In this document: piece after piece, positions 3,251-51,482 of the stretch
How positions within the stretch are numbered: the first letter of the stretch is position 1
Layout of the letters: every line of letters starts with the position of its first letter
NCBI GenBank assembly: GCA_964544755.1
Contig: CAZJDL010000006.1
Span: 1 to 51,699 of the forward strand
DNA length: 51,699 bases
Direction: 5' to 3'
From: an uncultured Pseudomonadales bacterium
Lineage (GTDB): Bacteria > Pseudomonadota > Gammaproteobacteria > Pseudomonadales > JAUIET01
Program-made: the position numbers and the translations under genes
Notes under the pieces: model-generated
Seen by the model: the letters and a program-made list of their open reading frames with translations, nothing else
Told to the model about the DNA's origin: nothing
Database searches by the model: none

Positions 3251-3626
3251 TGTGCCGTTACCGGCCAGGCTGGTAGCAACATAAACTTATAAAATTTTCG
3301 TCAAAATACAGTATGAGTTTGCTTGCAGCAATCGTCAGGTCTGCGAAGATGTGTAAGCGAGTCATCGGATTGAATATCGGAAATTGCCTTTGTTGCAGCA
3401 ACAGGAATGCCGACAACAGGCCAGCAAAACTTATGCTGAATATGAAAGGGAGAGAAAAGAGCTGGAGAAGGACGAGTGAATATAGCCCGTCAGCCGCGTA
3501 GCGCAAAAAAACGTACCGCTGACGCTGCCGCCGCGCACAACAGCGAAGTCATGCCAATGCCAATTGTTGTGAAATCGAAGCTATTCTGGTTTACACTCTT
3601 CTGATCGTAAGGAGTATTGCGAAGAA

Positions 3627-4886
3627 ATGCCTAAGCCATCCGCTACTATCAAGTTGTTCGCTATAAATGAGGCGAATGACGCGCGGTTCGAAGATCAGGC
3701 ATATACAGAGTCTGTTGGTGGCCGCTTGCGACACGAGCGTGAAGCGCAGCGCATTTCCGAAAAAGCAGCGGCGCATAAATTGCATCTGATGGTCACCGAT
3801 CTGCGCGCTATAGAGTCTGATAGTTATAACCCTACGGCGCATGACGACCTGTTAAGAAACTATTTGCGTGATTACGCTAATTTTTTGGCGCTTAATCCTG
3901 ACTCCATTCTTGCGATCTACGATCGACAGGCGGGCACGAGCTTTCACCGTGGCACGCACAGAATCGATGATATCCCCAGAGCTCAAGCGACAGGTGCCGG
4001 TAGTCTGGTCACCGGTAGTTTGGTCGTGGCAACGGTGGTGTTGGGGTTTCTGGTTATCGTGCAATTTACTGATACAAGCACGGTTAACGCCTTACTGGCC
4101 GGCCGTGACGATCGAGCCGGGGCCGAAGCGCAGCAATCTGTAATGCCGCAAACGGCTGATACCGACACAGCGGCCGACGATGATGTCGATCTTACGCTGG
4201 TAGATGTTCAAGATGAGGCCGCGTTGACGCCGGTAGCGTCAGGCCTTGCGAGTACGGGCTTTGCGACGGCGTTGCTAACGACGTCGGGCCAACCCATCGA
4301 TCAAGCCGAAGAAGGCGATCTGCCGACGCCGGCCGCAGCGGAACCGCAGCCGGCATTGAACCTGGAAACCCCAGTTGGCTCGCGCAAGTATGCACAAGCT
4401 CTTAATGCACCTGAAAAACCCGAAAAAGCGCTCATCACCAGCCACCAGCGGAACGTCGGCAATTCGATGACCGAAGTGCTGGCCGCTTATCGCCGGGACG
4501 ACAGTGCTAGCCCCGCAGCGCCAGCCGCCACAGCAATAGATGAGCTGGCGTTCAGATTTGCTAGAGACTGTTGGGTAGAGGTTTATGACGCCAATAATAA
4601 CCGCCTGATTGCGAAAACCAGTAAAGCCGGTGACAAGTTGCACCTCAGTGGGAAGTCGCCCTTTAACGTGTTGGTGGGTCACTCACGTGAAGTAGTGCTG
4701 CAGTTTAATGGCCACCCGGTAGAAATCGAAAAAATAGAGCGCAGCTTTTCGACCCTGTTCAAAGTTGAGCGGGCTAGTGCGGATGCTGTGTTACCTGATG
4801 TGGCACCCAAAGTGACGACTATACGGCGTAAATGGCCCGACTATCCCGCCGAATCGACTGCGCTAAATATTCGCGTAGAAGGCTGA
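3627..4886 (+). CDS. RodZ-like protein (degenerate HTH, single TM, DUF4115 domain)
   Basis: GGRLRHERE..LRAIESDSY..NYLRDYANFLAL HTH-like region, TM helix, low-complexity linker, DUF4115 motif FARDCWVEVYDA..GKSPFNVLVG..LQFNG. Confidence 0.75.
   Translation: MPKPSATIKLFAINEANDARFEDQAYTESVGGRLRHEREAQRISEKAAAHKLHLMVTDLRAIESDSYNPTAHDDLLRNYLRDYANFLALNPDSILAIYDRQAGTSFHRGTHRIDDIPRAQATGAGSLVTGSLVVATVVLGFLVIVQFTDTSTVNALLAGRDDRAGAEAQQSVMPQTADTDTAADDDVDLTLVDVQDEAALTPVASGLASTGFATALLTTSGQPIDQAEEGDLPTPAAAEPQPALNLETPVGSRKYAQALNAPEKPEKALITSHQRNVGNSMTEVLAAYRRDDSASPAAPAATAIDELAFRFARDCWVEVYDANNNRLIAKTSKAGDKLHLSGKSPFNVLVGHSREVVLQFNGHPVEIEKIERSFSTLFKVERASADAVLPDVAPKVTTIRRKWPDYPAESTALNIRVEG
4361..4440 (+). repeat. 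Left arm of the palindromic MITE-like element, in frame within the RodZ-like CDS
   Basis: 71/80 nt identical (manual alignment) to 12699-12778; encodes LETPVGSRKYAQALNAPEKPEKALIT. Confidence 0.9.
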
Positions 4887-4926
4887 AAAAAAGAACCCAC
4901 GCTGTAGCGGTGCCGCGCGATACTTT

Positions 4927-5784
4927 TCAGACATTCGTGCTGAAAGTGTCGCATTGGTTGATGTCGCCAGTTTCCAAGCCACGCCTGAACCACTTCACAC
5001 GCTGCTTTGAGCTGCCGTGGGTAAATGACTCCGGTGTGACATAGCCGCGGCCTTGCTTTTGCAGGCGGTCGTCGCCAATGGCGCTGGCGGCGTTCAAGCC
5101 TTCTTCCAAATCACCCTGCTCAAGAATGTTGTGGGTGCGGTGTGCATGGTTAGCCCATACGCCGGCGAGGCAATCGGCCTGTAATTCCTGCCGTACCGAC
5201 AGAGCATTACCCTGTTTCTTGCTCACGCGCTGGCGTTGCGTCATCACCTGCTTGGAAATGCCCAACAGGGTTTGCACATGGTGACCGATTTCATGCGCCA
5301 CCACATAAGCCTGGGCAAAATCGCCGGGCGCGCCGAAGCGATTCTTCAAATCACTGTAAAAACTGAGGTCGATATAGACTTTTTGGCCGCCGGGGCAGTA
5401 AAAAGGACCCATTGCGGATTGAGCGTAGCCGCAAGCCGATTCCACCGCGCCGCTGAACAATACCAACGTGGGTTCTTTATAAGTGCGGCCAAGCTGTTGC
5501 TGAAAAATCACACTCCAGGTGTCTTCAGTATAGCCAAGCACAGCCTCAGTAAACGCCACCAGCTCTTCTTGTTCGGCGGGTATGGGCTGTTGCTCATTGT
5601 GCGCGGGGGAGGTCGGCCCGCCAGCGCCCTGCAATACAACACTGGGATCGACCCCGAAATACATCGCCACCAGCGCCAGCACCAGAATACCGATCCCGCC
5701 GCCGCCGATGCTTGCACGACGCGACATTCCAGCGCCGCGCCGATCTTCTACATTTTGACTACGACGGCCTGTTTTCCAGCGCAT
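4927..5784 (-). CDS. ypfJ: Neutral zinc metallopeptidase, YpfJ family
   Basis: MRW..RRSQNVEDRR start, GPFYCP, AHEIGHHVQ (HExxH), ELQADC, IGDD, FTHGSS. Confidence 0.9.
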   Translation of the reverse strand: MRWKTGRRSQNVEDRRGAGMSRRASIGGGGIGILVLALVAMYFGVDPSVVLQGAGGPTSPAHNEQQPIPAEQEELVAFTEAVLGYTEDTWSVIFQQQLGRTYKEPTLVLFSGAVESACGYAQSAMGPFYCPGGQKVYIDLSFYSDLKNRFGAPGDFAQAYVVAHEIGHHVQTLLGISKQVMTQRQRVSKKQGNALSVRQELQADCLAGVWANHAHRTHNILEQGDLEEGLNAASAIGDDRLQKQGRGYVTPESFTHGSSKQRVKWFRRGLETGDINQCDTFSTNV

Positions 5785-5849
5785 GCTGTTGATCCCGGTA
5801 TGACGATTCGAATGGAAATGCTAACAGAAATTGGCGGCTGACGCTTCAG

Positions 5850-5884
5850 CCTAGAAACCGCAGTTGGGCGCGAAAAAGATGTGC
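5850..5884 (-). repeat. Remnant right end of the MITE-like element
   Basis: CCTAGAAACCGCAGTTGGGCGCGAAAAAGATGTGC is the exact reverse complement of 12845-12879. Confidence 0.9.
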
Positions 5885-6107
5885 AAGCTGACCTGATAGC
5901 GACCTCCAGGGGCGGATACGCCTATGAAAATATGCGCTCCGTCACGGCTATAAACGATATTGGCTGAAAATCAAGCAAGTCGCTCGCAGGTGGCGCTCGC
6001 TTGCATTGTGACGACTTGGTGTAAAAGTCCTCCATAACGGTTACGGTGCCTACTTTATCTATGGTAACGTTAGCGCCAATAAAGCGAATGCTGGAGGGTG
6101 CAGTACC

Positions 6108-6716
6108 ATGGGAACAGCCACAATTGTTTTGTTAGTGGTCATCGTTGGTTTGGCATTGTTTGTAGTCAATATCTATAACCAGTTGGTGACCTTAAAAAAC
6201 CGTTTCAAAAATGCTTTCTCGCAAATCGAAGTGCAGCTAAAACGGCGCTACGACCTGATTCCAAACCTGATCGAAACCGCGAAGGGTTACCTGTCGCACG
6301 AACGCGAAACGCTGGAGGCAGTGACCAATGCGCGCAACCAGGCCATGGCCGGTTTGCAGGCGGCGGCGGCTGACCCCGGCAGCCCGCAGGCCATGCAACA
6401 GCTGGGTGCCGCGGAAACCGCGCTGGGCAGTGCATTGGGTCGCTTGAATGTAGTGATGGAAGCGTACCCGGACTTGAAAGCCAATCAAAATATGATGCAA
6501 CTCAGTGAAGAGCTGACCAGCACCGAGAACAAAGTCGCGTTTTCCCGGCAGGCTTACAACGACTCGGTCATGGCGTACAACACGTACCGGCAAACCTTCC
6601 CGCCGAATGTTTTCGCCCCTATGTTTGGTCACCCGGAAGACGCCACTTTGCTGGAATACGAAGACATTGAAGCGCTACAGGAAGCCCCCAAAGTCAGCTT
6701 TTCGCAGGATTCGTAG
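6108..6716 (+). CDS. lemA: LemA family protein
   Basis: N-terminal TM; YN.LV..KN...NAFSQIEVQLKRRYDLIPNL; EAYPDLKA; ENKVAFSRQAYND; GGAGG RBS. Confidence 0.95.
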   Translation: MGTATIVLLVVIVGLALFVVNIYNQLVTLKNRFKNAFSQIEVQLKRRYDLIPNLIETAKGYLSHERETLEAVTNARNQAMAGLQAAAADPGSPQAMQQLGAAETALGSALGRLNVVMEAYPDLKANQNMMQLSEELTSTENKVAFSRQAYNDSVMAYNTYRQTFPPNVFAPMFGHPEDATLLEYEDIEALQEAPKVSFSQDS

Positions 6717-6755
6717 CGCCAGCGTCAACACCTTGATGGGGCACGAGGCGGTGCA

Positions 6756-8699
6756 GTGAACTTTTTCGAATCGCAAGATCGTGCGCGGCGCAAAACAACC
6801 CAGCTCATCATTCTGTTTTCCTTGGCCGTCATCAGTCTGGTCGTGTTGACCAATGTGGTGGTGGTTCTGTTCGCCGTTTTTACTACCCAGGGCAGCATTG
6901 CGACCGCCGACTGGCGCGCTGCGCTGAGCAGCGTCGGCTGGGATACGCAGGTGTTTATCAGCATAGGCGTTGTGTTAGTCATCGGCGCCGCTAGCCTGTA
7001 TAAAGTCGCGACACTGGCGGGCGGTGGTGCGGCAGTGGCCGAGTCGTTAGGTGGTAAGTTGATCAACAGCAATACCAGCGATCTGAGCGAACGCCGGGTG
7101 CTCAACGTGGTTGAGGAAATGGCGATCGCCGCTGGCCTGCCGGTGCCGCCGGTATACATGATGGACGAAGATGGCATCAACGCCTTCGCCGCCGGGTTTC
7201 AGGCGCAGGACGCGGTGATCGGCGTGACCCGCGGCACCGTGCAGCTTCTCAACCGCGAAGAATTGCAAGGTGTAATCGGCCACGAGTTTAGCCATATTCT
7301 GCACGGCGATATGCGCATCAACATTCGTTTAATGGGCGCGCTGTACGGCATTATGGTGATTGGTATGGTCGGCTATTTTGTTATGCGCACTTTTGCGCAT
7401 TCCAATGCGCGGCGCTCGTCTAACAGTAATAATCAGGGCGCGTTACCGTTTTTGGTGCTTGGTGTGGGCTTGATGATTATCGGCTATGCTGGCACGTTCT
7501 TTGGCAATTTGATTAAGGCCTCGGTCAGTCGCCAGCGCGAATTTTTGGCCGACGCGTCTACGGTGCAGTACACTCGCAATCCCGGTGGTATCGCCGGAGC
7601 GCTGAAAAAAATCGGCGCAGCAAGTCAGGGTTCAAAGATACTGCACCCCCATGCGGCGGAGGTCAGCCATATGTTTTTCGGCCAGGCGGTGCGCGTGGCG
7701 TTCAATACTTTTTTGGCAACCCATCCACCGCTGCGCAAGCGCATCAAGCGCCTCGAGCCCGGCTGGGACGGCAAGTTTCCCGAGTTGGGAGCGGCTTCCA
7801 GCGCGGCAACTGCCAGTTCTTTCGACGCGCGAGAGCAGGTGGCGGGTTTGGCCGGCGCCAGTGTTGCCGCTGCGGAAACGGCTAGTCTTCTCGACTCGAT
7901 TGGTCAGCTTGACGAGCAGCATATCGACTATTCGCGCCAATTGATCGCGTCCGTTACCGATCGAGTCCTGACGGCCGCGCACGAACCCGCGGGCGCCAAA
8001 GCGGTAGTTTATGCGCTATTGTTCGCCGCCGATCCGGCCACGCGTGCGCAACAACTCGACCGCGTTGAACAGGCCGAGGATGCACCCACGTTTCAAACGC
8101 TGATCAACCTGCTGCCCGATATCGAACAGTTGGGCGTTGAATATCGTTTGCCGTTAATCGATATCTGCATTCCCGTGCTTAAAACGTTGTATCACGATCA
8201 GTACCGCGAGTTTCGCCGGCTGGTGCTGGCGCTGATGCGGGCCGATGACCATATCGATTTATTTGAATGGTGTTTGCATCGGCTGCTGGTGCGCCATCTT
8301 GACCCGGTATTCAGCCGCGTGCGGCCGCCGAAGATACGTTATGATAATATCGAGAAACTGGAACAACATTGCGCAGTCTTACTGGCTGCGCTTGCCTATG
8401 CGGGTGCGGAATCGGACGCACAAGCGCAGCAGGCTTTCGTGCAAGGTATGGCGGAACTCGATTTTACCGCTGCCGGCTTACCTGGCAAACGCAAGGCGGC
8501 CTTGCTGGAAATTGACAAGGCGCTGGCCGAGTTGAATAGTTTAACGCCCTTGCAAAAACCGCGTCTTATCAAAGCCTGCGCACGATGCGTGGTGGCCGAT
8601 GAAAAAATTCTAGCGCAGGAAGTTGAGCTGGTTCGCGCCATCGCCGATAGCCTCGATGTGCCGCTGCCACCGCGGTTGGCGGGGCAGAAGATGTTTTAG
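6756..8699 (+). CDS. M48 (HtpX-like) membrane zinc metalloprotease with C-terminal extension
   Basis: NVVEEMAIA, INAFAAG, GVIGHEFSH, SRQREFLAD, THPPL; typical LemA partner. Confidence 0.9.
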   Translation: MNFFESQDRARRKTTQLIILFSLAVISLVVLTNVVVVLFAVFTTQGSIATADWRAALSSVGWDTQVFISIGVVLVIGAASLYKVATLAGGGAAVAESLGGKLINSNTSDLSERRVLNVVEEMAIAAGLPVPPVYMMDEDGINAFAAGFQAQDAVIGVTRGTVQLLNREELQGVIGHEFSHILHGDMRINIRLMGALYGIMVIGMVGYFVMRTFAHSNARRSSNSNNQGALPFLVLGVGLMIIGYAGTFFGNLIKASVSRQREFLADASTVQYTRNPGGIAGALKKIGAASQGSKILHPHAAEVSHMFFGQAVRVAFNTFLATHPPLRKRIKRLEPGWDGKFPELGAASSAATASSFDAREQVAGLAGASVAAAETASLLDSIGQLDEQHIDYSRQLIASVTDRVLTAAHEPAGAKAVVYALLFAADPATRAQQLDRVEQAEDAPTFQTLINLLPDIEQLGVEYRLPLIDICIPVLKTLYHDQYREFRRLVLALMRADDHIDLFEWCLHRLLVRHLDPVFSRVRPPKIRYDNIEKLEQHCAVLLAALAYAGAESDAQAQQAFVQGMAELDFTAAGLPGKRKAALLEIDKALAELNSLTPLQKPRLIKACARCVVADEKILAQEVELVRAIADSLDVPLPPRLAGQKMF

Positions 8700-8732
8700 A
8701 AGGATAGTTCAATGTCGAGACCGGCCTAAATA

Positions 8733-9650
8733 GTGGCTAACGTAGACGTGCGAATACTCGTGACGGGGGGCACCGGTTTTATTGGTGTGCCGCTGGTGCG
8801 CGCGCTGCGTGAGCAAGGCTATCGCGTGCTGGTGCTAACGCGGCAGCAAGCGCTTAAACAACAGAGTGATAGCAATGTGCGCTTTATCAACAGCCTCGAT
8901 GAAATCGGCAACGGCGAGCGCATAGAGTCAATGGTTAATCTGGCCGGCGAGTCGCTAGCGGCGCGGCGTTGGTCGGCGCAACAGAAGGCGAAACTGATCG
9001 GCAGCCGGCTGGACACGACGCGCGAACTCTTTAGTCTGGCACAACGACTGCAGAGCAAACCGGCGGCGCTAATTAACGCATCGGCCATTGGCTATTACGG
9101 CCCGCAAGGCGATCAATCGCTGGATGAATCGGCGCCGCCGGTTGCCAGCTTTTCGCAGCAGCTTTGCCAGCAGTGGGAAGCTGCTGCGCAGGAATTTGCA
9201 AGCCTGGGCACTCGCGTTTGTTTGTTGCGCTTCGGCATTGTGTTAGGTTCCGACGGCGGCCCGTTTGCCGAGCTGCGCAAATCGTTTGACTGGGGCGTTG
9301 CCAGCCAGTTTGCTGATGGTAAGCAATGGATGTCGTGGATTCATCGTGACGATGTTATCGGCATCATTTTGTTTGCGTTGCAGCACGCCGATATCGAAGG
9401 GCCGGTTAACACGACCGCGCCGGAACCAGTAACGAACGCGCAGTTTTGCGCGGCGATGCAAAATAACAAACGTACTTTTTTACGCCTGCGCCTACCTGCG
9501 TTTTTGCTCCGCACAATGGTAGGGGAGATGGCCGACGAGCTGTTGTTAACCGGGCAGCGGGTTGTCCCGAAAAAACTAACGGATAGCGGCTACACCTTTA
9601 AGTATCCAGCGCTGCAGAGTGCATTGCGGAATTTGCTGCGATCACAGTAA
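8733..9650 (+). CDS. TIGR01777 family NAD-dependent epimerase/oxidoreductase (YfcH-like)
   Basis: TGGTGFIG, NLAGE, ASAIGYYG, QWMSWIHRDD, GQRVVP. Confidence 0.92.
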   Translation: MANVDVRILVTGGTGFIGVPLVRALREQGYRVLVLTRQQALKQQSDSNVRFINSLDEIGNGERIESMVNLAGESLAARRWSAQQKAKLIGSRLDTTRELFSLAQRLQSKPAALINASAIGYYGPQGDQSLDESAPPVASFSQQLCQQWEAAAQEFASLGTRVCLLRFGIVLGSDGGPFAELRKSFDWGVASQFADGKQWMSWIHRDDVIGIILFALQHADIEGPVNTTAPEPVTNAQFCAAMQNNKRTFLRLRLPAFLLRTMVGEMADELLLTGQRVVPKKLTDSGYTFKYPALQSALRNLLRSQ

Positions 9651-9765
9651 AAGCAGGCCGGCCCTAAGACTAATCGGAACTGCAAAGGCCTGCATTGAGG
9701 GAGAATTTTCGGGCCGGCCTAGCAGGCTAAGCAGGTATCATTCGCCGGCGTTGGTTTTTGCACCG

Positions 9766-10776
9766 TCAACCGCCGGTCATATTCATAAAGCGCAGAATTT
9801 GCGGTTCCTGCTGCAGGTCGAAATGATGTTTCTCGGGCTTGAGCCGCATCGCGTCGACGATGGCATGTTCAAGTTGATCCTGGCCGCTAGCGCCTTCACG
9901 TAAAATACTTTTCAGGTCGATCGAATGCTCGTTGCCCAGGCACAACAGCAGGCGGCCTTCGACGGTGACCCGCACGCGGTTACACTGCGCGCAGAAGTTA
10001 TGGCTATGCGGGGAGATAAAACCGACTCTAATCGCGCTGTCAGCCATTTTGTAATACTTGGATGGTCCACCGGTGAAATCTTCGCTAGGCGACAAGGCGT
10101 AGTGTTGTGCGATTGAGCTGCGCACCTGGTCGCTGGAGCAGTATGTGAGAGCACGGTCATGATCGTCGATCAGCCCGAGTGGCATTTCTTCGATAAATGA
10201 AATATCCAACTTGCGGTCGCGACAGAAGTCGATCAAATTCATGATCTCGTCTTCGTTGCGACCGTTGAGAATAACGCTATTAATTTTGGTGTGCTCGAAG
10301 CCGGCGGCCTGCGCGGCTTCGATGCCGCGCAGCACGGTAGCCAGATCACCGGTGCGCGTTATTCTGCGAAAGCGGTCTGCCCTTAAGCTGTCGAGGCTGA
10401 TATTGAGGCGCGTTACGCCAGCTTGTTTGAGCTGCCGTGCGAGTTTGGGCAATTGCGAACCGTTGGTGGTTAAGGCCAGCTCGTGCAGATCATCGAGCGC
10501 GGCGATGTTTTCAACCAGCGACAGTATATTCTTGCGTATCAGCGGTTCACCGCCGGTCAGGCGAATTTTGTTTACGCCGAGTCCAACGAAAGCTTGCGCT
10601 AGCCGTGCAATTTCTTCCAACGATAGTATTTGAGCACGTGGTAAAAACTGCATATGTTCGGCCATGCAGTACACGCAACGGAAATCACAGCGGTCGGTGA
10701 CCGACAGGCGCACATAGCTAACGCGGCGCTGAAAATTGTCGACTAGCTGTGGTTTGATGGCAGCGTTCACTAACAC
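9766..10776 (-). CDS. moaA: GTP 3',8-cyclase MoaA
   Basis: [15 protein letters not shown] radical-SAM motif, [16 protein letters not shown]-terminal GG. Confidence 0.95.
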
Positions 10777-10778
10777 GA

Positions 10779-11243
10779 TTAATCCCGGCTGCGAATCACA
10801 ACGGTTTTCGCCATCTTGTCATGCCAGCCCTGCTTGCGTTTGTCGAAGGCTATCCACAAAAAGCCCAGCCCCAGCGGTAGCGAAGAAACGAAATAACCCA
10901 AATAGCGAATAAGCAGTTGCTTGTTGCTGGCCTTACCCAAGGTGTCGGCGTCCACGATGCTGGCGTTGACCAACATTTTCCCTGGCGTCGCGGCGAAATA
11001 ATACCAAAACGCCAGTACCGCTGCGGTGGGGAACACATAGTTGATGAACACATCCCAAATGCCGAGTACGGCGAACTGCTCGGCAGAGCCTTGCCATGCT
11101 CCAATGCCGTAAATGGCCATCATGGTTGGCACAACAACGAGCATGAGCGCCAGTGTATCAACCAAACTGGCCAACACACGCGAACCGAAGCCGACGTAGT
11201 CGTCGAGCGCGAGTTGTTCGATGGCTTGATCAATGTGATTCAA
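10779..11243 (-). CDS. RDD family protein
   Basis: [25 protein letters not shown]. Confidence 0.9.
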
Positions 11244-11419
11244 TATTGCCTGCCCAGACTTAAGTCCTGTCCCCGATAATAGCGCAACCCTACTGCGAAT
11301 GCATTGACCAGCGCGACCGCTGATGCCGGGCTGTTTAGGTGCCAGCAGGCTAAATTTATGAGTTGCGTGATGATTGGCGGAAGCGCCAGGAATCAGACCG
11401 GCTGTAAGTGGCAGCCGCC

Positions 11420-12610
11420 TTATTTGAAAACCGCTTCCGGAGTGCTATCGAAGTCCTTCTCCAGCGTGTTGATGGTGATACGCATGATTTCGCGGAATAC
11501 CTTGTCCCGGTCTTCATTGGCGACGATGGGGATACTGGCGCGGTCGGCTTCGGCGAGAAGATAGGACTGTAAGTCCCAGATTTCGTCGAAAGACTCCAGA
11601 TAACGATCGGCGCGGCGTTGCCGCACACGGCTACCCCGGCCCTGCAGTCTTTGCTGCAGCACTTTGCGCTTTAACACAGCCAACATGACGGGGATCACCG
11701 TGGCATCCTCGCCGGGTTTCAGTTGTTTCACAATGCTTGGTTGCACATGCACCCCTTCCACCACCAGGGAGACCTTTTCCCGCTGGGTACGCGCGATAAC
11801 CGCCTCGATGGCAGTCGAGAGCAAGTCGGCCTGGCTACAGTAGCCCCTGACCAGCAACGATTCCGGCACTTCACGCGGTTTTCCCTGCTGGCCGCGTAAG
11901 GCCTGCCAGGCGGTAAAAGACGATTTATGCAATACTGGCAGCAGTCGCTCGGGTAGCATCGTGCGCATGACTTCGCGCAGCATGTCGGTTGACTGCGTGC
12001 GCACAATGTCGAGACGGCTGGCCAACATGGTGGCGACCGAACTTTTACCACAACCGGCAGTGCCGCCGATCAAGAATATAAGCGACCGGCCGCTGTCGAC
12101 GAAGTCTCGCCAGATCAGCCAGCGTTTTGCCACTGCCGGACCCAGGTCGCGCGATTGGCGCAGATAGCGATAAGTCAGCCGAGAAAGACGCCGCGATGTG
12201 AGCTGTTCAATGCGCCGGTCAACAAGGTGTTTGTGTAACGTGGTCACAAAACGAGCAGCCTCGTCGCTTGCCAGGCCGATAGTCTCCAGGCCGCTCCGGT
12301 ATTGAAGCCGCGAGAACGGCACTAACTCGCCGTCGCGCTGTTGCACTTGAACGACATGGGGTTGGTCTTGTTGCTCGAAGCGGACGACGATACTATCTTT
12401 CTTGGCGTTCTTTAAGTGCGCAACGACCATGCGATGCAGGTCAGCGGTCGTGACCAGTGCTTTATCACCGATAGCAGAACGTATTTCGGTTGCTAATTGA
12501 AAAGCATCTTCGAAGGCCAAGCCTGCATCTTGCAATGAACGTGTCAGGATGCCCCGCAGAAAAGGCACTTTTGTGTGTTCATCCTGATCTTCCACGAGTA
12601 TTTTTGCCAT
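11420..12610 (-). CDS. 2-phosphoglycerate kinase-like P-loop kinase with two ATP-cone-like N-terminal repeats
   Basis: VPFLRGILTRSL / VPFSRLQYRSGL repeats; IGGTAGCGKS Walker A; STDMLREVMR, LHKSSF, VVEGVH motifs of Pgk2-type kinases. Confidence 0.75.
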   Translation of the reverse strand: MAKILVEDQDEHTKVPFLRGILTRSLQDAGLAFEDAFQLATEIRSAIGDKALVTTADLHRMVVAHLKNAKKDSIVVRFEQQDQPHVVQVQQRDGELVPFSRLQYRSGLETIGLASDEAARFVTTLHKHLVDRRIEQLTSRRLSRLTYRYLRQSRDLGPAVAKRWLIWRDFVDSGRSLIFLIGGTAGCGKSSVATMLASRLDIVRTQSTDMLREVMRTMLPERLLPVLHKSSFTAWQALRGQQGKPREVPESLLVRGYCSQADLLSTAIEAVIARTQREKVSLVVEGVHVQPSIVKQLKPGEDATVIPVMLAVLKRKVLQQRLQGRGSRVRQRRADRYLESFDEIWDLQSYLLAEADRASIPIVANEDRDKVFREIMRITINTLEKDFDSTPEAVFK

Positions 12611-12696
12611 GGATCTCCCTGTGTACGGATAGTTTGCGTGCCGGTCGGGTTTACTGGTTGTTATTGCTGCCAGGACATCAAAGCGATGGGTGTATT

Positions 12697-12881
12697 ATCC
12701 TAGAAACCGCAGTTGGATCACGAAAGTATGCACAAGCTCTTAATGCACCTGGAAAATTCGAAAAAGCTCTCATCACCAATAAGGTGACCACGAGTTTTTC
12801 GAATCTCCCATGCACATCAAGCTTTTTCATACGAATCAAGAGGCGCACATCTTTTTCGCGCCCAACTGCGGTTTCTAGGAT
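12697..12881. mobile_element. 185-bp palindromic MITE-like non-autonomous element
   Basis: Perfect 20-bp TIRs ATCCTAGAAACCGCAGTTGG (12697-12716 / 12862-12881), flanking TATT direct repeat (12693-96, 12882-85), internal hairpin TTCGAAAAAGCTC..TCACC-aataa-GGTGA..GAGTTTTTCGAA; partial copies at 4361, 5850 and 34861. Confidence 0.85.
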
Positions 12882-13531
12882 TATTCGTCGCTTGTGGCAG
12901 AAAAATCATACGGTATCTTGATTACGCTGCTGCGCACAAATCCGGAATGCACTCCCAGTTCGTTGTAACGTACACAGTTGCCGCCATCAAATAGCAATTT
13001 GCCGATATAGCGGTGTGATATTTTGTGTTTGAGGTGGTCGGCATAGTTCAGATTCAGAAAAGAGCAGATCAGCCCTCTGATGACGCCGGCATGGACGACA
13101 ATGAGAACAGTTTGCCGAGGATGTGCTGCGGCCACGGCGGAAATGAACTGCACGCTACGCCGTTGCATCTGGCGGAAACTCTCGCCGTCAGGATATACCA
13201 GGTCCGGGTCTTTTTTGTGTTTTGGGTAGTGCTCGGCCACCCACTTCTTTTTCTTCTTGAACAGTTTCCCGTAGTTCACCTCGTTTAGTGCGGCAGAAGT
13301 GTGGATCACGTTGATCCCCCGGCGCAGGGCATAGAACAGTGCGGTTTGCCGGGCCCGTTCCAGGTCGCTGGAGTAGACGGCGTCGAAGTCGAAGGCGCGC
13401 TTGCGCATGCGGGCATCCACGAAATCGACATCGGCGCGCCAGCCGCTGTGGCGAGGCGAGTCGCCCCAGCCCATAATCTCGTCCGCCGCGTTATTCAGCG
13501 TTTTGTAGTGTCTGGTGATAATCGCACGCAT
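12881..13531 (-). CDS. Histidine phosphatase / phosphoglycerate mutase family protein
   Basis: ITRHYKT (RHxxT), YSSDLERARQTA, LNEVNYG, PDGES, VVHAGVI. ATG at 13531; the longer ORF overlaps parA. Confidence 0.88.
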   Translation of the reverse strand: MRAIITRHYKTLNNAADEIMGWGDSPRHSGWRADVDFVDARMRKRAFDFDAVYSSDLERARQTALFYALRRGINVIHTSAALNEVNYGKLFKKKKKWVAEHYPKHKKDPDLVYPDGESFRQMQRRSVQFISAVAAAHPRQTVLIVVHAGVIRGLICSFLNLNYADHLKHKISHRYIGKLLFDGGNCVRYNELGVHSGFVRSSVIKIPYDFSATSDE

Positions 13532-43427: not shown

Positions 43428-44534
43428 GTGAAGACGATAAGCAACCTGCTATTGATATTGTGCCTGGGTGTTCTTGGTGGCTGCAATGGTGACAGTGCGC
43501 CAGCAAGTACATCCGTTAGCGAGGAGCAGCCCGCGCAAACGTTTAAGTGGAAGCTGGTGACAACCTGGCCAAAAAATTACCCTGGTTTGGGCATGGGGCC
43601 GGAAAACTTCGCCACACTGGTCGAGCAGATGAGTAATGGTCGCTTAAAGATAAAAGTCTACGGCGCCGGCGATTTAGTGCCGGCCATGGAGGCCTTCGAT
43701 ACGGTACAGCAGGGTACCGCGGAGATGAGTCACGGCGCCGCCTATTACTGGAAGGGCAAGTTGCCAGTGGCGCCTTTTTTTTCCGCCGTCCCGTTTGGTT
43801 TCACCGCACAGGAGATGAATAGCTGGCTATACCATGGTGGTGGCATGGAATTGTGGCAGGAGGTATACGCGCCGTTTAACTTAATACCGCTGGCCGGCGG
43901 TAACACCGGCGTGCAAATGGCCGGTTGGTTTAATAAGGAAATCAATTCGTTGAAAGATCTTAAAGGTTTGAAAATGCGCATTCCCGGGCTGGGCGGCGAT
44001 GTGCTAAATCGCATTGGCGGCACGGCGGTGAATTTGCCCGGCAGTGAGTTGTTCACGTCGTTGCAAACCGGGGTTATCGACGCCACCGAGTGGGTCGGCC
44101 CGTACAACGATTTAGCGTTTGGGCTGTATAAAGCGGCGCAATACTACTACTACCCGGGTTGGCACGAGCCGGGCCCAACGCTGGAATTTACGGTAAACAA
44201 AACGGCATTCGAGAGTTTACCAGCAGATTTACAGGCGATAGTGACAACCGCCGCCCGCGCCGTGAATCAGGATATGCTGGACGAATTCACCGCGGCCAAC
44301 AATGCCGCCCTGAAAACCCTGGTGGAAAAGCATAACGTTCAGTTACGCCGCCTGCCGGATGACGTTATCCGCGAGTTACACAGAGCCTCCGACCAGGTAT
44401 TGGAGGAAATGGCCGCCTCCTCACCACAGGCGCAAAAAATTTACGACTCGTTCACCGAGTTTCGGGATAACGTCAGAGCCTGGCATGCGGTCTCGGAGAA
44501 GGCGTATTCCGAAGCGCGTGATTTGGAATATTAG
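43428..44534 (+). CDS. dctP: TRAP transporter substrate-binding lipoprotein (DctP/TakP-like)
   Basis: Lipobox [49 protein letters not shown]. Confidence 0.92.
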   Translation: MKTISNLLLILCLGVLGGCNGDSAPASTSVSEEQPAQTFKWKLVTTWPKNYPGLGMGPENFATLVEQMSNGRLKIKVYGAGDLVPAMEAFDTVQQGTAEMSHGAAYYWKGKLPVAPFFSAVPFGFTAQEMNSWLYHGGGMELWQEVYAPFNLIPLAGGNTGVQMAGWFNKEINSLKDLKGLKMRIPGLGGDVLNRIGGTAVNLPGSELFTSLQTGVIDATEWVGPYNDLAFGLYKAAQYYYYPGWHEPGPTLEFTVNKTAFESLPADLQAIVTTAARAVNQDMLDEFTAANNAALKTLVEKHNVQLRRLPDDVIRELHRASDQVLEEMAASSPQAQKIYDSFTEFRDNVRAWHAVSEKAYSEARDLEY

Positions 44535-44684
44535 TGTGGAGTGCTCGAAATACCAAGACAAATAATACCCTCCAATAGCGGGCACTTGTTCTGAGATAAA
44601 AGCTGTGTTGAGTCAGGTACTCATTAAGGAAGCTCTTTGGGCCTTTGGAGTCGAAATAACTCAGCACAAATTAGCGTATCCTCG

Positions 44685-45410
44685 TTAATGAAAAAACCAC
44701 TTACCATCATCAGGAAGCAATACATCTTTGAAATTTGTCCACGCCTCTTGACTAAACAAAGCATCAACAATCGAAGTATTGTCAGGAGCGATAGATATTA
44801 ACCCCGCCAATGATGCATAAATCACAACTGTTTGAATTTTTCCTACCGGTGTTTTTAAGCTATAAAATTTTAAAGCAGTCCCCAATGATCTTTTGACACG
44901 TTTGTTGCCCAAATCAACGCTATAGGTTTCATCCAGTGTTAAATGAAGCAAATAACCAAGACTAACCATAAATCCGTAAACCCATGATACTAGGGAGTTC
45001 AAACCAAAAATTGAATGCATCAAAATGGCTACAGCTACACCCCAAATTAGCGAAACGGGTACCGAGTGAAGCATACCTCGGTGTTTAGATATTTTACGAA
45101 ATAGCTCTAGTAAACCGTAGCGAATTCCAGCAAAAACAACTGCCGACATCAGTAATATTTCCATAACCGAATAGGTAGACGACTTGGTAAATATCAGAAA
45201 AATCGTCGCTAATAGAGCAAGAACGTTGAAGCCTACTTTAATGGCGGTTGAGTGTGCAGAATCAACGTCGGGTAGTAAGCCACCAAATACCCCTAAAAGA
45301 AATGCTATAACGCCTTGTTCAGGTGTAACTATCTTCATAGCCAAAAGCGTTCCTGATACCGCAGCCGATGCTGATGCGGCTACCGTAAAATGTGTATTGA
45401 AATTTGCCAT
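44685..45410 (-). CDS. Membrane-bound metal-dependent hydrolase (YdjM/DUF457-like)
   Basis: MANFNTH, GGLLPDVD, HRGMLHS, GYLLHLTLDE; visibly AT-rich. Confidence 0.85.
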   Translation of the reverse strand: MANFNTHFTVAASASAAVSGTLLAMKIVTPEQGVIAFLLGVFGGLLPDVDSAHSTAIKVGFNVLALLATIFLIFTKSSTYSVMEILLMSAVVFAGIRYGLLELFRKISKHRGMLHSVPVSLIWGVAVAILMHSIFGLNSLVSWVYGFMVSLGYLLHLTLDETYSVDLGNKRVKRSLGTALKFYSLKTPVGKIQTVVIYASLAGLISIAPDNTSIVDALFSQEAWTNFKDVLLPDDGKWFFH

Positions 45411-45495
45411 CTCTGTCTAAATTGTGCTCCTTGCGGATAGGGCAATCCGGGTAAGTGTGCATGCTGTCCACCCCGGGGAAGACGCGATGCCGCGT

Positions 45496-45682
45496 AAGTG
45501 GCACGGCAGCTACTATCCTGACGGCAAGAATCGACTTGCAATGGACGTAAAGCAGGGGATATTCAAGCGAGCGCCGCAAAATTCAGTTCGATTTCGCAGT
45601 GATCGGTGCGAAAAGCGAGGCGAACGGGTATTCTATAACTGTGAACTTTGGGAGGAAAGGGATTTATATACTTACTATACCC
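45496..45682 (+). repeat. ~170-bp repeat, copy 1, ending in an ISCR/IS91 oriIS-like motif
   Basis: Aligns with 50941-51114 (23-bp identical core CTTGCAATGGACGTAAAGCAGGG); ends GGGATTTATATACTTACTATACCC. Confidence 0.7.
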
Positions 45683-50940: not shown

Positions 50941-51114
50941 AAGCGGCAGGGGGCTATTATCCTGGCGGCAGGAATTGGCTTGCAATGGACGTAAAGCAGG
51001 GAGGTGTTTAAGCGCGCGCATGCAAAATGTAGCTCGATTTCACAGCGAGCGGCGCGCAAAGTGAGGCGAGCGGCTATTCAATAACAACGGCGGGCTTTTG
51101 AAGTGGGCAAGGGC
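50941..51114 (+). repeat. ~170-bp repeat, copy 2 (oriIS-like terminus not recognisable)
   Basis: Diverged direct repeat of 45496-45662. Confidence 0.75.
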
Positions 51115-51176
51115 TTCAGCAAACCCCGAAGCCGACTAACGACAAGATACGGTGGAGTTTTTGATCAGCGCCTAGT

Positions 51177-51482
51177 GTGCAAATGGCCGGTTGGTTTAAT
51201 AAGGAAATCAACTCGCTGAAAGACCTTAAGGGTTTGAAAATGCGCATCCCCGGGCTGGGCGGCGACGTGCTAAATTGCATTGGTGGCACGGCGGTGAATT
51301 TGCCCGGCAGTGAGTTGCTTACGTCGTTGCAAACCAGGGTTGTCGACGCCACCGAGTGGGTTGGCCCGCACAACGATTTAGCGTTAGGGCTGTATAAAGC
51401 GGGGCTACTACCCGGGCAGGCATGAGGCGGGCATGCGGTCTCGGAGAAGGCATATGCCGAAGCGCGCGATTTGGAATATTAG
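51177..51482 (+). pseudogene. dctP: Decayed duplicate of the 3' part of dctP
   Basis: Matches 43911-~44174 and ~44482-44534 with a frameshifting deletion in the YYYY codons and a ~300-bp internal deletion; ends at the same GAATATTAG stop. Confidence 0.92.

Follow-up and report, generated by a model that had tools for sequence, protein, structure and literature searches.

The rodZ-like gene described here occupies positions 3627..4886 of the forward strand of the window, by which we mean the whole 51,699-nt stretch of DNA that was analyzed, and is an open reading frame of 419 amino acids. The window belongs to a MAG (G000) of 3.63 Mb in 184 contigs that is 97.5% complete, and our data point to an uncultured Pseudomonadales of hydrothermal-vent metagenomes as the host. 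The protein has the features of a RodZ: an N-terminal helix-turn-helix (Pfam HTH_25, amino acids 33-93, 41.1 bits), a single hydrophobic membrane helix placed at about amino acids 125-147 by a structure model of low confidence, a long linker (about amino acids 150-304), and a C-terminal RodZ_C domain (amino acids 309-369, 61 bits by Pfam). The two Pfam domains bear out the initial annotation, which had described a RodZ-like protein with an in-frame repeat remnant. Only two RodZ_C matches were found in the MAG and the rodZ-like gene alone among them bears the HTH, leaving a single gene in the genome with the full RodZ architecture, the one that carries the remnant. By its domain architecture, the gene product would be the cell-shape protein RodZ. 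Its neighbors are a DUF1631 gene and a Zn_peptidase gene; it departs from RodZ in that ispG does not adjoin it and lies on a separate contig (C62).

The structure model has a mean pLDDT of 43.8 on an 8-row alignment and was used for the pattern of ordered and unordered regions alone. In it, helices are predicted up to amino acid 170 and a β-rich domain from amino acid 305, and the region between them (amino acids 171-302) is modeled, at low confidence (pLDDT 23-34), without secondary structure. The linker also differs in length, being 113-136 amino acids long in six orthologs without the insert (P0003-P0008) and 156 and 160 amino acids in the two proteins that carry it, the window protein (P0001) and P0002. 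The linker that received the insert is variable and, as modeled, apparently unstructured.

Within the linker-coding part, positions 4361..4440 (+) are a remnant of the left arm of a palindromic MITE (element positions 1-80) and encode amino acids L246 to T271 (LETPVGSRKYAQALNAPEKPEKALIT). The remnant is identical to positions 12699-12778 of the same window at 71 of 80 nucleotides, without gaps (blastn, 88.75% over 80 nt; E 3.35e-23 in the 3.63-Mb genome), and it was found again in a profile search (nhmmer) over element positions 2-80 at E 1.1e-16. The match had been reported correctly at the outset, with the element put at 12697; the element proper is now set at 12699-12879. The match starts at the first base of the TIR and ends at element position 80, where the central loop (TCACC-AATAA-GGTGA) has its 5' edge. 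All nine differences agree with the original list: five are synonymous third-position changes from A/T to G/C (cta>ctg, gga>ggc, tca>tcg, cga>cgc and gct>gcg), and the other four, spread over three codons, are non-synonymous (A>P, G>E, F>P). The remnant is in frame with the 419-aa reading frame, contributing amino acids 246-271 to the linker, and the junction peptides read …PALNLETPVGSR… and …ALITSHQR…. Base 4361 is a third codon position and the element is thus translated from its base 2, which gives the sole stop-free frame on the remnant strand; the other strand likewise has one.

The reference copy of the MITE, a full-length long form of 181 nt at 12699..12879 (+), has perfect TIRs of 18 nt (CCTAGAAACCGCAGTTGG / CCAACTGCGGTTTCTAGG) and is flanked by an ATTAT target duplication (12694-12698 and 12880-12884). 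As single-stranded DNA it folds into a hairpin of -45 kcal/mol (z -9.66), and none of 200 shuffled sequences was equally stable. A profile built from 16 full-length copies gave 67 nhmmer matches in the MAG, which collapse to 42 loci. The ends align across all 16 full-length copies, seven of which are 163 nt long, one 162, five 180 and three 181, the long forms having 17-18 extra nucleotides in the right arm. A perfect 5-bp TSD flanks 10 of the 16, four more agree at 4/5 positions, and in two the duplication is poor; the perfect pentamers are ATAAT, ATTAT, ATGAT, ATAAA, CTGAA and TTGAA. No Rfam family was matched over positions 3500-13200 at E values up to 0.1. Among the 40 relatives examined, the MITE is present in both congeners (G001 and G002) and absent from all six sister-genus genomes, and one order-level relative has a tiny match to the element end alone. 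Of 399 other genomes sampled evenly across the class, 6 have diverged copies, with identities of 73-84%. The element is therefore a true MITE family with a patchy distribution across Gammaproteobacteria, and a hairpin MITE family with IS1380-like ends is an addition to those previously catalogued.

The remaining loci of the 42 are partial; some are cut by contig ends, and others, for example those on C46, C132, C15, C102 and C25, lie inside contigs. The C132 locus (2504-2586, G000) is a half copy that matches the reference without a difference (100%) from element position 1 to 79 and whose end falls within about 3 nt of the end point of the rodZ remnant; given this copy, breakage at the hairpin tip may be recurrent. 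It adjoins a gene fragment that has no Pfam match and that may be IS200/RAYT-like. As a separate observation, a central CTCATCACCAATAAGGTGA(C/T)CACG is nearly invariant while the arms vary, both in the G000 copies and in three copies from other genomes (L060, L061 and L063, from G358, G104 and G140), and by eye the arms of the copies at 73-84% identity from other families appear to stay complementary. A nearly invariant center between arms that seem to stay complementary would fit selection acting on both the hairpin and its tip, perhaps as a binding site.

At the rodZ locus, the filled site reads gca TTGAA|CCTGGAAACC…, and the host pentamer TTGAA that abuts the element end (4356..4360, +) is presumably the left copy of a 5-bp target duplication. 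The same pentamer is the perfect TSD of the C4 and C52 copies and also flanks the C132 half copy. No right-hand TSD copy is visible at rodZ, and the right junction is not reconstructable; nor was a degraded right arm found 3' of position 4440, with both nhmmer and blastn stopping at element position 80. A solo right-end fragment of the same MITE (element positions 126-163, 38 nt, nhmmer E 1e-6) lies on the reverse strand at 5850..5887, in intergenic DNA upstream of Zn_peptidase and 1.4 kb from the rodZ remnant. The idea that this fragment is the missing arm, moved by an inversion, was rejected, as the 3' part of rodZ has kept the order and orientation seen in the orthologs.

The ends of the MITE recall those of the IS1380 family. 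ISEcp1 has ends of the form CCTAG…, duplicates 5 bp and inserts into A/T-rich targets, and the MITE likewise has ends that begin with CCTA, a 5-bp TSD and A/T-rich targets. An intact-looking IS1380-like IS of 1,694 bp is present in the congener G001 (contig C520, L073 1226-2919), with CTGAA on both sides as its TSD. Its TIRs, CCTAAATTCATCAGTTGA and CCTATAAAAATCAGTTGA, have 12 and 13 of 18 positions in common with the MITE TIR, including the blocks CCTA and CAGTTG. Its transposase of 516 amino acids has NF033539 (IS1380) as its best NCBIfam match, at 135.8 bits, with full-length coverage of the model (9-414 of 419) but below the cut-off of 180 bits, and it matches Pfam DDE_Tnp_1_4 at 78.4 bits; the IS is possibly uncatalogued. 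The MITE differs from the IS1380 family, as seen in this IS, in a TIR identity of 12-13/18, in the below-threshold transposase match and in having no cognate IS in G000. An IS with the exact MITE TIR was found in none of six genomes (G000, G001, G002, G104, G358 and G140). Three IS1380-like fragments in G000 (on C63, C137 and C30) were considered as the parent IS and rejected, as they have other ends and the TIR does not abut them. From the similarity of the ends, we suggest that an IS1380-like element is the likely kind of mobilizer.

The direction of the event can be read from proteins and sites that have no insert. Of 13 proteins found at E <= 1e-10, eight were chosen for alignment; P0003-P0008, at 45-61% identity, have a gap exactly at the peptide, and only P0001 and P0002 carry it. 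The orthologs in the two congeners, each a 390-aa open frame, match both flanks of amino acids 245-277 and not across them, and in G001 the sequences on either side of the gap, AAAEPQP… and …NS(V/M)TEV, are conserved and the empty site reads acg GTCAA aaaaacc. A second empty site lies in the MAG itself. Contig C77 (about 1-2370, G000) encodes P0009, a protein of 614 amino acids that combines a TolC-type outer-membrane efflux protein (Pfam OEP) with a C-terminal RodZ_C, an unusual fusion whose RodZ_C is 64-66% identical to the C-terminal part of the RodZ-like protein; its cluster has two member sequences on three contigs. In the RodZ_C region of C77 the insertion site is unoccupied and reads gca GTAAA caaagcc. 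Since six orthologs and the paralog all lack the peptide, the element did not capture it from the gene: the MITE inserted into rodZ, rather than rodZ donating sequence to the MITE. The initial annotation had proposed that a palindromic repeat contributed a peptide of about 26 amino acids, and had asked whether that peptide might be ancestral; at 45-61% identity the orthologs lack it, so it is not ancestral there, and the proposed origin holds.

We see next to no likelihood that the element instead picked up a piece of rodZ, or that the locus is an assembly chimera formed through the repeat. The repeat does break contigs in the MAG, with several copies at contig ends, but the peptide is missing from six of the eight aligned proteins as well as the paralog, TIRs and TSDs occur at unrelated loci, and the element is found in other families of the class. 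Moreover, a contig of 8,583 nt obtained in a different study (record 9) covers the window allele without gaps and differs from it at three positions; the allele is therefore not a misassembly or chimera. The junctions are spanned by contigs from independent runs (X7 record 9, X8 record 18 and X9 record 26), and a separate NCBI assembly encodes P0002.

P0002, a protein of 423 amino acids from that separate assembly, is 92% identical to the window protein and represents a second allele. It reads LETAVGSRKYAQTLNAPEKPEKALITNKVTT-NHQRN and stands in the alignment as …LNLETAVGSRKYAQTLNAPEKPEKALITNKVTTNHQRN…, opposite …LNLETPVGSRKYAQALNAPEKPEKALIT-----SHQRN… in the window allele. P0002 retains 15 more element nucleotides (…ALITNKVTT), NKVTT being the element translation of positions 81-95. 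Because P0002 reaches position 95, the insertion predates the split of the alleles and once extended past the loop; the extra 15 nt further mean that the "half" element is the outcome of stepwise in-frame deletion and not of a clean stop at the loop. Thus, of the earlier reading, the match from the TIR to the loop edge stands, but the loop as its original end does not, as P0002 runs 15 nt further. By comparison of the two, the window allele lost 15 nt at the hairpin tip after the split. It is this allele evidence for a stepwise origin of the "half" that is new here.

The diverged, P0002-type allele is also present in an independent metagenome run (X13). Record 3 of that run bridges the left junction (4330-4440) with five differences in total and has the consensus letters at 4371, 4379 and 4385, and pieces that start at 4411 and 4424 exceed the window by 15 and 12 letters. 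From the differences in record 3 and the residues common to P0002, at least five of the nine remnant changes predate the split, and three changes, one non-synonymous and two synonymous, fall on the window lineage. The nucleotide divergence between the alleles is about 3.4% (22/645, record 1). None of the 11 metagenome loci returned by the scan has the insert, and no RNA dataset was listed among those that contain the stretch.

These alleles also bear on whether a full hairpin was ever present in rodZ. What reached the gene could have been a truncated element alone, through abortive or one-ended transposition or through recombination with a half copy; partial copies are indeed common (full length is seen at only 16 of the 42 loci), the C132 copy ends about 3 nt from the same point, and the right TSD is not seen in rodZ. 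We regard such an entry as unlikely. The P0002 remnant reached at least position 95, past the loop, and the present end is thus not the insertion end; and a full 163-nt copy would be stop-free and frame-neutral at the rodZ site, and hence a viable intermediate.

The latter point follows from the lengths of the elements. Counting the 5-bp duplication, the gain is 168 nt or 56 codons for a 163-nt copy and 186 nt or 62 codons for a 181-nt copy, and either would bring neither a stop nor a frameshift to the rodZ site. Length plus five is a multiple of three in 10 of the 16 full-length G000 copies, while the 180-nt copies shift the frame. Full-length copies from other genomes (n=8) are open in that frame in three cases and have stops in five, and 12% of palindrome-preserving shuffles have a frame without stops on each of the two strands. 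The stop-free frame is thus not a conserved trait of the family, and distant members lack it.

The further in-gene copies that the initial annotation suggested looking for did not turn up: the rodZ copy is the only one of the 42 loci that is internal to a recognized gene. Open frames that run over the copies on C4 (913 aa), C13 (332 aa), C1, C43 and C15 were rejected as in-gene insertions because these frames are read-through from intergenic copies into neighboring genes, or noise. None of the nine loci inspected in other genomes showed a clean in-frame insertion internal to a gene. Two full-length 163-nt copies (C4:37446-37608 and C13:36444-36606) lie directly upstream of, and in frame with, genes, the first encoding an Ig-repeat (He_PIG)/GDSL lipoprotein and the second a signal-peptide protein, and they may provide these genes with a 5' untranslated region or a start codon, or displace the existing one. 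In G002, a 163-nt copy on C220 (L067 356-518) abuts an ORF fragment that starts partway into a gene, perhaps for an enoyl-CoA hydratase, and this gene may have been disrupted by the MITE.

It had also been proposed that the repeat was domesticated and that its peptide is retained under coding constraint, and neither claim was upheld by our comparisons. Synonymous changes make up 5/9, where 0.26 of the sites are synonymous (binomial p 0.058), and all five synonymous changes are toward host-like G/C third positions. However, when the 16 intergenic copies are translated in the frame used in rodZ and compared with the consensus, they have 14 synonymous to 25 non-synonymous changes, from which the 5:4 split in rodZ is indistinguishable (Fisher p 0.24), and changes from AT to GC make up 7/9 in the rodZ copy versus 22/40 in the intergenic copies (p 0.19). 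The G+C content of third positions has risen from 0.23 in the consensus to 0.42 in the remnant, the value for the gene being 0.56; this drift fits residence in a coding sequence, without showing a function for the peptide. Protein differences between P0001 and P0002 number 2/100 in the HTH part, 2/50 around the membrane helix, 7/95 in the linker before the insert, 2/26 in the insert itself, 7/32 in the linker after it and 5/98 in the RodZ_C region. The peptide diverges at the pace of the preceding linker, unlike the folded domains. The sole constraint that these data demonstrate is that the frame is kept open, because the downstream RodZ_C must be made.

Co-option of the peptide, with purifying selection for a role in RodZ such as setting linker length or providing a periplasmic contact site, is distinctly unlikely on this evidence. 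Besides the synonymous excess, it could draw on the survival of the insert through the split of alleles about 3.4% apart and on the fact that every indel seen is in frame. But the intergenic copies show comparable patterns, the replacements between alleles in the peptide are like those in the preceding linker, a further five amino acids are gone in the window allele with the 15-nt loss, the keeping of the frame is explained by the need for RodZ_C downstream, and orthologs at 45-61% identity manage without the peptide. With the nominal p of 0.058, some selection on the remnant, whether translational or on the peptide, may still act. A more far-reaching and very doubtful idea is that the young MITE subfamily of this genus is "exon-ready", with 56 codons (163 nt plus the 5-bp TSD) and one stop-free frame in each orientation, so that its insertions into genes survive, and that the RodZ peptide has been kept because it tunes the periplasmic linker of the cell-shape machinery; if true, a route of protein evolution like that of the RPEs would have been caught, during trimming, in a free-living vent gammaproteobacterium.

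We consider it probable that a non-autonomous MITE inserted at the TTGAA of rodZ and was trimmed by in-frame deletions to a tolerated passenger peptide. A hairpin MITE of a family with 163-nt and 180/181-nt forms and a 5-bp A/T-rich TSD inserted at TTGAA in the linker region, between the parts coding for the membrane helix and for RodZ_C, probably mobilized in trans by a DDE transposase of the IS1380 type, the family being suggested by the ends of the element. Entry of a full-length copy in the sole stop-free register would have added 168 or 186 nt, and since a 163-nt or 181-nt form plus 5 bp is a multiple of three, the protein would have stayed whole and gained a longer linker. A first trimming would then have removed everything beyond about element position 95, giving the state of P0002, and a second would have removed 15 further nucleotides at the hairpin tip, giving the state of the window; slippage or processing of the hairpin could have produced such deletions. 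The end product would be a 26-aa passenger peptide, probably neutral, in a linker of variable length.

Gene-borne repeats of this kind have precedents. RPE insertions into genomic ORFs are described as translational fusions, R. conorii is reported to have 44 RPE integrations, nearly half of them in ORFs, and in-frame fusions between MITE ORFs and host ORFs are called "not unusual", with the RPEs as the extreme case and ERIC, BOX, QMITE1 and Anabaena MITEs named as ORF-carrying MITEs (PMC10969869). QMITE2 of Coxiella burnetii is described in frame in the middle of ORFs and as a 33-aa C-terminal extension of enhC (PMC5896051). The Rickettsia palindromic elements, to which the remnant had been compared from the start, are an apt parallel in kind: a palindromic repeat in an ORF is read in frame and adds a peptide, and orthologs lack the insert. 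The RPEs differ in occupying many genes per genome, whereas the MITE here is in a recognized gene at one of 42 loci. To our knowledge, RPEs are without clear transposon ends of the TIR/TSD kind, whereas the MITE has both TIR and TSD; its host is a free-living vent gammaproteobacterium, and rodZ keeps only a shrinking left arm. QMITE2 and the intragenic ERIC, BOX and Anabaena MITEs are alike in being TIR-bearing, non-autonomous elements with an incidental ORF fused to a host ORF, but the rodZ MITE is of a different family, with no Rfam match, and has an allele pair that shows the erosion of the insert.

The rodZ remnant is thus an instance of a known route by which selfish DNA adds peptides to proteins, and no new mechanism is involved. 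It provides a clean, datable case of a MITE read through as protein in a host that is not an obligate intracellular bacterium: an ortholog and a paralog each have the empty site, and two alleles show the palindrome eroding stepwise and in frame. It supports the view that such peptides persist mainly in tolerant, disordered linkers, where they decay instead of being recruited.

One further feature of the window was seen near its far end, where three collinear direct repeats of 229, 59 and 49 nt, 90-93% identical, lie at 43911-45557 and again at 50953-51482, about 5.4-7.3 kb apart; by their order and identity, they suggest a partly duplicated segment.
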